Source: a virus
Taxonomy: Duplodnaviria > Caudoviricetes
Strand: one strand, 5' to 3'
IMG/VR virus record: IMGVR_UViG_3300033076_000684
Coordinates: 1 to 56,103 of that record
DNA length: 56,103 bases
The notes below the pieces were generated by a model. The model made no database searches. It had not been told where the DNA came from and worked only from the letters and a program-made list of their open reading frames with translations. The translations under genes were made by a program, and so were the position numbers. Of this stretch, positions 55,081 to 55,942 are shown in pieces; position 1 is the first letter of the stretch, and each line of letters begins with the position of its first letter.

Positions 55081-55108
55081 TGTGCTGGGCATCACAATAA
55101 ACTGCCCA
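55081..55108 (+). ncRNA. Mini H-type pseudoknot element, copy 1
   Basis: TGTG/CACA and TGGGCA/TGCCCA crossing stems, AAAC linker. Confidence 0.6.
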
Positions 55109-55198
55109 CAACACACCACGCTAGAAGTGTATAAATGTCGTAGCAGTAGGATACAATAGTAATACAACCCCAAAAAGAAAAGAAAGAAAGGAAAACAA

Positions 55199-55645
55199 AT
55201 GGCTCGTTCGCTATCTGTAAAAATCCCAACCGCTTCGCTAATCGCAGAGGTTGAGGCACAAATCGTAAAGGTTGAGCAGGACATTGAGCAGTATGCTGAT
55301 AAGCGTAAGCAGTATGAGGCTGACGCAAAGCAGTATGAGAAAGATGTAATCGCTCACGCTATCAAGGCACTCAGCAACCCAGAAAACATTGGAACTGAGG
55401 CTGGCTCACTAATCCGTATCACTTCGTCTTACCGCTACAATGGTATTTCTGTTGAGTTTGATACTGAGGCACTAGGTTTCCCAAAGAAGCCTGAAGAACC
55501 ACAACGCCCAAATCAGCAGACTTACTATGGTCGTGATTACACCACCAAGTTGGACTTGCTGAAGAAGAACCTCAAGGTGCTGAAGATGACTCAGCAGGAG
55601 GAAGTCAATGCTTCCACTTACAACTCTGTAATGGAACTTCTCTAA
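55199..55645 (+). CDS. Early coiled-coil protein
   Basis: GAAAGGA SD; 148 aa. Confidence 0.8.
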   Translation: MARSLSVKIPTASLIAEVEAQIVKVEQDIEQYADKRKQYEADAKQYEKDVIAHAIKALSNPENIGTEAGSLIRITSSYRYNGISVEFDTEALGFPKKPEEPQRPNQQTYYGRDYTTKLDLLKKNLKVLKMTQQEEVNASTYNSVMELL

Positions 55646-55655
55646 CGAGAAACCC

Positions 55656-55686
55656 TGACCTGAGCAAGTCAATGCTAAACTGCTCA
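55656..55686 (+). ncRNA. Mini H-type pseudoknot element, copy 2
   Basis: TGAC/GTCA and TGAGCA/TGCTCA crossing stems, AAAC linker. Confidence 0.6.
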
Positions 55687-55718
55687 CTCTCACCCAACAT
55701 AGAAAAGGAAATAAATAA

Positions 55719-55910
55719 ATGGCAAAGAAGAAACTAGTAGTAGCAACTGAGGTATGGAATACTCAGGCTGGTCGTATCAGCAAGGCAGTAGTCCGCAACG
55801 CAGATGGCACTTTCAATGGTGCTACCAACCAGACTAAGGGTGTGCGTGTGCGTGCCAAGTCTGCTAGCCGTATCAAGCGGACTCCAAGTTTGTCGCTTGT
55901 TGGGCGATAG
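55719..55910 (+). CDS. Small basic early protein
   Basis: AAAGGA SD; VVRNADGTFNGATN. Confidence 0.7.
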   Translation: MAKKKLVVATEVWNTQAGRISKAVVRNADGTFNGATNQTKGVRVRAKSASRIKRTPSLSLVGR

Positions 55911-55915
55911 AGTAA

Positions 55916-55942
55916 TGTGCTGGGTATCACAATAAACTGCCC
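55916..55942 (+). ncRNA. Mini H-type pseudoknot element, copy 3
   Basis: TGTG/CACA and GGGTA/TGCCC (one G-U), AAAC linker. Confidence 0.6.

Follow-up and report, generated by a model that had tools for sequence, protein, structure and literature searches.

The window analysed here, the whole of the IMG/VR record IMGVR_UViG_3300033076_000684 (56,103 bases, classed as linear and estimated to be 52% complete), carries on its + strand three H-type pseudoknots of about 28-31 nucleotides (nt), PK1, PK2 and PK3, each lying just after the stop codon of a small gene. They belong to a large and widespread family of phage RNAs, in which the knot stays close to the end of the upstream open reading frame (ORF). 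The core of the knot resembles coremin, a motif of eukaryotic RNA viruses, and from this analogy and the sequence context we tentatively favour the view, at a little less than an even chance, that the knot would act as a mechanical roadblock which caps the 3' end of the upstream cistron.

The first-pass annotation of this DNA had proposed three + strand H-type pseudoknots here, starting 5-10 nt after stop codons and lacking a U-tract. Reading of the sequence bears this out. The gaps are 6 nt for PK1 (TAG, ending at 55074), 10 nt for PK2 (TAA, 55645) and 5 nt for PK3 (TAG, 55910), and a terminator scan of the window found no terminator-like U-tract site near any of the three. The covariance model R1, described below, scores them at 38.4 bits (55077-55112), 36.6 bits (55652-55690) and 30.8 bits (55912-55947), with E values from 4e-9 to 7e-7, and the next best match in the window reaches only 13 bits. 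The three knots exceed chance. The string AAACTGCYC occurs six times in the window, as compared to a mean of 1.15 in shuffles, none of 100 of which reached six; only three of these occurrences are knots, and the other three are not copies. A loose generic pseudoknot descriptor was rejected as a search tool, as it gave about 390 matches in shuffles of the window.

Table 1. The pseudoknots and the features around them (S1 and S2, stems 1 and 2; L1 to L3, loops 1 to 3; aa, amino acids).
Feature	Position	Strand	Description	Basis
238-aa protein	53917-54633	+	Cys-rich; phrog_1392 (E 6e-95)	function unassigned by PHROGs match
Promoter ahead of 48-aa gene	54847-54875	+	sigma-70-like, TTGACA-17-TACAAT	11/12 consensus
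48-aa ORF	54928-55074	+	TAG stop 6 nt before PK1	ORF list
PK1	55081-55108	+	S1 UGUG 55081-84 / CACA 55093-96; L1 C 55085; S2 UGGGCA 55086-91 / UGCCCA 55103-08; L2 U 55092; L3 AUAAAC 55097-55102	
148-aa ORF	55199-55645	+	TAA stop 10 nt before PK2; no PHROG match	ORF list, PHROGs
PK2	55656-55686	+	S1 UGAC 55656-59 / GUCA 55668-71; L1 C 55660; S2 UGAGCA 55661-66 / UGCUCA 55681-86; L2 A 55667; L3 AUGCUAAAC 55672-80, 9 nt	
63-aa ORF	55719-55910	+	TAG stop 5 nt before PK3	ORF list
PK3	55916-55943	+	S1 UGUG 55916-19 / CACA 55928-31; L1 C 55920; S2 GGGUA 55922-26 / UGCCC 55938-42, 5 pairs including one U-G; L3 55932-37	
Promoter of next gene, 3' of PK3	56027-56056	+	sigma-70-like, TTGACA-18-TACAAT	11/12 consensus

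Relatives were gathered in two ways. A fixed-spacing pattern scan of IMG/VR, with the four bases on each side of S1 left free, gave at least 140 matches at no fewer than 120 loci; the pattern-scan counts for the family are lower bounds. The alignment A1 consists of 116 distinct pattern copies and 9 copies from the window and from G001, a complete related genome; five rows without pairing, duplicates and any copy at the end of a locus were excluded. R1 was built from these 125 members with S1 modelled as pairs. R1 includes one spurious pair (columns 30-35) and was used for searching only, the pair statistics being taken from A1 and from a second alignment, A2. So as not to rely on the motif for finding copies, 80 loci (886 kb; 64-97% identity), the best 80 of at least 595 in IMG/VR, were fetched through the neighbouring 238-aa protein, a marker of uncultured phages that form a very large group, and their copies gave the 124 distinct rows of A2. 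The patterns and the model fix S2 and AAAC, so the invariance of these parts is partly by construction, a bias that the protein-found set softens and does not remove.

On the 80 protein-found loci R1 gave 272 matches at E up to 1, and 270 of them lie on the gene strand. A mismatch scan of the same loci found 145, 22 and 48 matches with zero, one and two mismatches on the gene strand, as compared to 0, 0 and 1 on the opposite strand. The related genome G001 (116,893 bases) has six knots, co-oriented with the genes and just 3' of stop codons. It holds an identical copy of PK2, and S1 stems that differ from those of the window yet are complementary (UAAC/GUUG, GGAC/GUCC, CAUG/CAUG, AACC/GGUU). 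Among cultured phages there are seven matches in Synechococcus phage S-EIVl, one in cyanophage S-RIM4 and one in Latilactobacillus phage TMW 1.2272 P1; at the sites inspected, one in each phage, the knot lies between annotated genes, right after the end of a coding sequence. No copy is found in Streptomyces phage LukeCage, one of the top cultured matches of the window's portal protein (45% identity), and blastn of the knot region against 50,697 phage records gave no match. A stricter pattern applied to GTDB, with one genome per species, found at least 118 loci on contigs of metagenome-assembled genomes (MAGs) of many bacterial phyla, including Saccharibacteria, and among the matches listed S1 is complementary at 4/4 positions in 76/121 and at 3/4 in 38/121. 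The proteins upstream of these knots look phage-like on reading, and therefore most of the loci are probably prophages or binned phage contigs.

A search of Rfam 15, as the first-pass annotation had proposed, gave no match at gathering score over the whole window and only chance-level matches at E up to 10 over 55060-55960; among 13 family loci only DUF2800, a tRNA and one hammerhead were matched. A canonical coremin copy likewise drew nothing relevant, and a coremin model thus appears to be absent from Rfam 15. The literature was searched both for sequence strings and for the topic, with subscription journals and supplementary files outside the reach of these searches, and no description of the phage knot was found.

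Both stems covary and are kept by compensatory change, as had been claimed before, and the larger alignments of relatives make the case much stronger. Among the IMG/VR matches listed, the free S1 bases are complementary at 4/4 positions in 107/140, at 3/4 in 28/140 and at only 0-1 in 5/140. In A1 95.3% of the paired cells form pairs, as compared to 77.8% in shuffles, and the covariation score is 0.440 as compared to 0.111; none of 500 shuffles reached either value, and slid controls scored 0.04-0.085. The corresponding values for A2 are 96.6% paired and a score of 0.475 as compared to 0.139. Compensatory changes were seen at four of the six S2 pairs in the protein-found copies, and pairs 11-15 are 100% paired in A2. 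At the S2 pair where the pattern allowed R and Y independently, A1 has A-U in 104 rows, G-C in 20, G-U in one and A-C in none. The earlier claim needs refining for the outermost S2 pair, U10 with column 35, which finds no support: U10 is constant, and the two form a standard pair in only 93/125 (A1) and 96/124 (A2) distinct rows. One S2 pair is a U-G wobble in 25/124 distinct A2 rows, and these strand-specific wobbles, together with the gene-strand matches, point to an RNA of the sense strand that is transcribed together with the genes.

S1 has 3-4 pairs in the family, and its closing pair is C8-G17 in 116/125 rows of A1 and 114/124 of A2, the remaining rows having G-C; the stacked helix of S2 and S1 is 9-10 bp long. 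The loop is always 8 nt, C-U-G-R-G-Y-A-N: a length of 8 gives 416 matches as compared to 10 in shuffles, and tetraloops 7 as compared to 11. NN-AAAC-U is invariant in 124/124 distinct A2 rows, followed by G, or by A when paired with U14, and then by C; a joint variant, AAAC-U to AAAA-G, was found in 11 distinct copies. The fixity of C, AAAC and UGC proposed in the first-pass annotation is borne out. C9, U10, A15 and AAA never vary in the protein-found copies, while L2 and the first L3 bases vary freely. U10 is invariant although its nominal partner varies, column 35 being A in 135/197 copies.

The position of the knot is fixed from the side of the upstream gene. Of the 197 distinct contexts in the protein-found set 191 have an upstream ORF, and the distance from its stop to S1 is 5 nt in 35, 6 nt in 22, 7 nt in 10, 8 nt in 8, 9 nt in 10 and 10 nt in 4, and less than 5 nt in only five. 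In the pattern-found phage set 93/166 knots lie 5-11 nt from the stop and 8/166 closer than 5 nt; in the bacterial-contig set 39/94 lie at 5-11 nt, and 11, a class of their own, at -8. The spacing looks like a decay from a hard floor at 5 nt, with the knot as near as allowed and not at an optimum distance. TGA stops are rarer before knots than among background ORF ends (4/109 as compared to 168/966).

A short stand-alone ORF of 20 codons, MKRF/Y-x-VPR-xx-HC-xx-GC-xxx-S, was observed at 14 loci (L191:7517-7579 on the - strand, and L149, L153, L182, L186, L194, L199, L201, L222, L228, L229, L244, L255 and L264). Its UGA stop is formed by the first three bases of the 5' strand of S2 (S2a) and so lies inside the knot. 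The carriers are MAG contigs of Aminicenantes, Thermodesulfobacteriota, Eubacteriales and others, most with a recognisable Shine-Dalgarno (SD) sequence, and in several an intrinsic terminator follows. Synonymous changes support coding, and no Pfam or NCBIfam match was found. A selenocysteine reading of the UGA was rejected, the in-frame continuations being short and variable.

Downstream of the knot the neighbours differ. The gap between the knot and the start of a tRNA gene downstream is 3-13 nt in 20/306 copies, and in 0/306 does a tRNA lie within 30 nt upstream. Hammerhead cores directly follow the knot in five copies, with the predicted cut 5-12 nt past it, and Rfam confirmed the one at L170, one of four loci submitted. 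The DUF2800 RNA (RF02960, 153-160 bits) was observed to begin 1-2 nt after the knot at L049:285-445, L195:5432-5592 and L220:5051-5208 (-). Of 174 phage-side copies 61 have an SD and start codon in the next 55 nt, 31 have a U-tract, 18 are followed by a tRNA gene no more than 15 nt away and 10 by TTGACW within 40 nt; a U-tract follows 16 of 132 bacterial-side copies. TTGACW begins exactly 10 nt after the knot in 11/197 contexts. In the window the next start codons lie about 90 nt after PK1 and about 143 nt after PK3, each behind the promoter region of the next gene, and 32 nt after PK2 with no promoter between. The slot after the 238-aa gene, with a knot at 14/80 loci, a terminator-like site at 7/80 and neither at 59/80, is uninformative on function.

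The first base after S2 is C in 110/197 copies and G in only one, the second is C in 97/197 and the third A in 73/197. A G at the first position could extend S2 at the cost of S1, and its near-absence suggests that the knot is selected; from the sequences, selection appears to favour it over a plain hairpin.

Coremin (GUCCGAAGACGUUAAACUAC), also called xrRNA-C after exoribonuclease-resistant RNAs (xrRNAs), is a motif of beny-, cucumo- and other eukaryotic RNA viruses. The accessible text of the coremin papers (PMC6546385, PMC10520033, PMC10321173) describes a hairpin of 3-4 bp whose loop is closed by a specific C-G pair (PMC6546385), a loop of YGAD (4 nt) or YGNNAD (6 nt) with up to 8 nt tolerated, a spacer of two tolerant bases and then AAACUAC, with A15-A20 essential, and a second hairpin (hp2) that is obligatory for resistance to Xrn1. 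According to the same text coremin stalls Xrn1 from the 5' side, one nucleotide ahead of its first hairpin (hp1), blocks scanning ribosomes, stimulates -1 frameshifting and resists elongating ribosomes, with 22% frameshifting in the cited assay (PMC10520033, PMC10321173). The phage knot has the same short stem closed by C-G, a C leading the loop and NN-AAACU-(G/A)-C, all within a compact 30 nt or so. A pseudoknot between loop and spacer is proposed for both, and both are found in intergenic regions and after coding sequences. In contrast to coremin, the loop of the knot is 8 nt (C-U-G-A/G-G-C/U-A-N) and agrees with YGAD or YGNNAD only in the leading pyrimidine, S2 is made up of 5-6 Watson-Crick pairs, and only 29/200 knots have a hairpin no more than 3 nt away, as compared to 152/1000 random positions and 34/58 canonical coremin matches. 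The carriers are also different, double-stranded DNA (dsDNA) phages of bacteria, without Xrn1. By analogy the phage knot would work like coremin, and it may be related to it. On its sequence features it is a new variant and not a coremin member, since it lacks the loop consensus and hp2, two of the defining features. The earlier statement that the knot is no named family therefore stands for Rfam 15 and falls short where the published coremin/xrRNA-C is concerned, whose core it matches.

In the portions of PMC10520033 and PMC10321173 available, a word search gave no mention of phages or bacteria. No paper linking coremin with phages was found within the reach of our literature searches, and the sole text containing both words was unrelated. 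The canonical coremin core itself (CGAA tetraloop, C-G closing pair, N-UUAAACUAC) was observed in IMG/VR with at least 124 matches at 117 or more loci (L349-L465), and both extra stem pairs are complementary in 97/124 of the matches listed. In one recurrent context, on contigs of 17-59 kb, it is flanked by a terminator on one side and by the scaffold and major-head genes on the other. The one locus checked, L375:7709-7745 (+), is from a tailed phage as judged by PHROGs (terminase, portal, scaffold, major head protein). At L204:4117-4139 (+), on a Selenomonadaceae MAG contig, the hairpin of coremin is joined to the AAACUGC of the phage type (GUCCGAAGAC-CUU-AAACUGC). This element, which looks intermediate between the two, has an 8-bp hairpin behind it and lies 120 nt downstream of a phage-type knot, one of three. 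The available text of PMC10321173 also describes xrRNA-WCC, a selected Watson-Crick variant of coremin with three S2 pairs, a 4-nt loop, G as L1 and an hp2 on which its Xrn1 resistance still draws. The phage knot shares with it the coremin scaffold, an antiparallel Watson-Crick S2 between loop and spacer and an unchangeable single-nucleotide L1, and differs in its 5-6 S2 pairs, its L1 of C (plus U) and the absence of hp2.

It is conceivable that the long early transcript, which lacks terminators, is cut or trimmed downstream of the knot, by RNase P at a tRNA, by a hammerhead, by an endonuclease or, in some copies, through termination at a U-tract, and that 3'-to-5' exonucleases halt at the knot. 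The upstream cistron would then not lose its stop codon, its 3' end would be protected, and the neighbouring cistrons would decay independently. Five bases past a stop codon in the A site, the mRNA leaves the entry channel of the ribosome. The 5-nt floor may thus correspond to the mRNA held by the terminating ribosome, and the knot could stay folded throughout translation of the upstream gene. The invariant C-U of L1, the junction pairs C-G and A-U and the AAAC of L3 may provide tertiary contacts for resistance, as proposed for coremin; those predicted involve C(+) in the major groove and AAAC in the minor groove. A 3' cap is suggested by the knot staying with the upstream ORF wherever a cleavage site is recognisable (tRNA 5' end, hammerhead), by the promoter regions that part two of the three window knots from the next gene, and by an early region without ordinary terminators.

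Several observations weigh against a 3' cap. The coremin precedent blocks in the 5'-to-3' direction, opposite to the one favoured here, and most copies have no recognisable downstream cleavage site (71/174 phage-side and 75/132 bacterial-side copies are followed by none of the tested classes). Rfam found no hammerhead at the loci L166, L043 and L029. A plain hairpin would suffice as a 3' stabiliser, which leaves more than 12 invariant bases unexplained, and the 5-nt floor could reflect only genome compaction and the avoidance of ribosome clashes. The invariance of U10 without a conserved partner is explained by no reading, and the same is true of the fixity of bases across phages of very different hosts.

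Nuclease blocking is, by analogy and context, the best supported of the three functions that the first-pass annotation put forward, and the main rival of the 3' cap is a block from the other side. The knot could, like coremin, stop RNase J, or an RNase E scanning from a tethered 5' end, and would then protect the RNA that comes after it, be this the next ORF, a tRNA, a ribozyme or the DUF2800 RNA. We find this unlikely. Coremin, to which the core corresponds, blocks Xrn1 arriving from the 5' side, a canonical coremin core occurs in the leader of scaffold and major-head genes of a tailed phage, and an SD and start, or a structured RNA, come soon after some of the copies. RNase J is also present in the known or likely hosts, cyanobacteria, Firmicutes and probably actinobacteria. 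However, a hammerhead or RNase P cut 3-13 nt past the knot would sever it from the RNA to be protected, the knot is tied to the upstream stop and not to the downstream start, which after PK1 and PK3 lies far off behind a promoter, and hp2, needed for Xrn1 resistance, is absent. A ribosome rather than a nuclease may also be what is stopped. As a translational insulator the knot would halt ribosomes that read through, slide or scan, and so uncouple cistrons and spare folded RNAs downstream. The anchoring to the stop with a 5-nt floor, the rarity of the leaky TGA and the tRNAs, hammerheads and DUF2800 RNA directly following some copies agree with this, as does the reported ability of coremin to block scanning and to resist elongating ribosomes (accessible text of PMC10520033 and PMC10321173). 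We nevertheless regard it as improbable: an insulator has no purpose where, as with PK1 and PK3, a long spacer and a promoter come next, ribosomes must unwind the knot at the 14 bacterial loci where the 20-codon ORF stops inside it, and the TGA deficit could be a trait of small early genes.

Processing, the second of the functions put forward, is a possible rival in the form of an RNase P site, if a slightly less probable one than the insulator. The stacked S2 and S1 would mimic a tRNA acceptor arm and be cut in loop 1, with U at -1, a G-C first pair, an A discriminator and a C-rich tail. In its favour are an invariant U10 without a conserved partner, followed by the pair G11-C, and a column 35 that is mostly A with C-rich bases after it. 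H-type pseudoknots bearing RCCA are reported to be cut in loop 1 by bacterial RNase P RNA in vitro, and the T2/T4 gene 32 knot with its ACCA is discussed as a candidate substrate (PMC12710915, in the text available). ACCA is however present in only 18/197 copies and CCA in none of PK1-PK3, the site would be redundant beside a directly following hammerhead or tRNA 5' end, the cut would leave the upstream message unprotected, and neither C9 nor AAAC, both invariant, counts among the determinants of RNase P. A specific binder or catalyst, that is a protein operator, an aptamer for a small ligand or a minimal self-cleaving ribozyme, is very unlikely. A pseudoknot with more than 12 invariant bases across many host phyla is the profile that the Breaker and Weinberg groups take as a sign of "biochemically sophisticated" RNA (PMC5737381, accessible part), and the knot shares genomic slots with hammerheads. 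Against this, L2 and the first L3 bases vary freely, the location after stops and before promoters is unlike that of a riboswitch, and no conserved flanking base marks a cleavage site. Binding of a phage-specific protein, the third function proposed, is itself unlikely for a knot found in cyanophages, a Latilactobacillus phage and MAG contigs of many phyla. The least probable role, one we hardly credit, is that of a transcription terminator, a pause signal or a Rho-related signal. The knot does occupy the usual slot of a terminator, from stop codon to next promoter, no terminator-like site lies near the window knots, and some copies have a U-tract. But that tract is absent from all window copies and from 143/174 phage-side copies, the next start is only 32 nt after PK2 with no promoter between, and S-EIVl has its seven copies although cyanobacteria are not known to have Rho.

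Among known phage elements, the knot in the T2/T4 gene 32 mRNA reportedly has a 1-nt loop 1 over a stem 2 of 6-7 bp, a 6-7-nt loop over stem 1 and an unstructured tail. It is an H-type pseudoknot of a phage mRNA with the same layout of loops and stems. It differs in being the gp32 operator in the 5' leader of a single gene, with no common sequence core known, whereas the knots described here follow the stops of unrelated small genes, many in each genome. The promoter-early stem-loop cassettes (PeSLs) of T4-type phages also combine a repeated structured element with an early promoter between small early genes. They are plain hairpins taken as terminators, and are not known to have a conserved knot or a coremin core. 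Pseudoknots of the SRV-1, luteovirus and MuLV types stimulate frameshifting or readthrough from 5-9 nt beyond the A-site codon, the same fold class at the same spacing. The phage knots lack a slippery heptamer (0/3 in the window, 7/93 in the family) and a conserved in-frame extension. The SRV-1 pseudoknot served as a control in the coremin work (PMC10321173, available text).

A frameshift or readthrough signal was accordingly rejected; the in-frame extensions in the window are 19, 5 and 28 codons, entering the knots in different frames, and the family median is 8 codons. The class of intrinsic terminators was rejected for want of a terminator-like site at PK1-PK3 and for the low share of U-tracts. 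A CRP site or DNA palindrome, TGTG-N8-CACA, does not fit other S1 sequences that stay complementary, strand-specific wobbles and matches confined to the gene strand. Riboswitches of the preQ1 or another type, a ToxI-like antitoxin repeat and a hammerhead core (CUGAGCA as compared to CUGAUGA) have no Rfam support, and their context and architecture do not fit.

The source phage is siphovirus-like, as judged by PHROGs matches that include the tape measure, portal and head proteins, and the top cultured matches of the portal protein include Streptomyces phages of about 130 kb. The structural genes lie on the - strand. Small genes on the + strand follow from about 52 kb onward, some of them downstream of strong sigma-70-like promoters in a promoter scan, and the genes carrying the three knots are small early genes. 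There are no tRNA genes in the 56-kb window. An extended motif, TTGACA-(A)AATGTCG...TACAAT, is common to the two early promoters of Table 1. Downstream of PK1 and ahead of the 148-aa gene (about 55133-55160) there is a weaker copy that has no good -35 box, and at the locus L078 the same promoter follows a knot. It was also possible to observe a conserved element, TTGACAAATG...GGGCGA(C/G)CCC, 3' of PK3 at 55953-55982; its counterpart in G001 follows copy c (L023, about 3010-3040, -). The promoter scan does not class the element as a consensus promoter.

A wider generalisation, which we put forward as doubtful, is that the coremin fold may be a general device of dsDNA phages in many phyla for stopping processive RNA machines, used here as a stop-anchored "RNA full stop" in place of terminators. 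If so, the fold would be directed at enzymes unrelated to Xrn1 (PNPase, RNase II/R, RNase J, scanning RNase E or the ribosome), bacteria being without Xrn1 itself, and the principle of blocking would be purely mechanical and independent of the enzyme. The near-identity of the core links the phage knot to the RNAs with which viruses of plants and other eukaryotes resist exoribonucleases, and raises the question of what such a fold stops in cells without Xrn1. In synthetic operons, a knot of such small size could be of use for insulating or stabilising cistrons. The usual explanation for the ends of bacterial and phage mRNAs lies in terminator hairpins and RNase sites, and beside these the knot would be a new, portable element.

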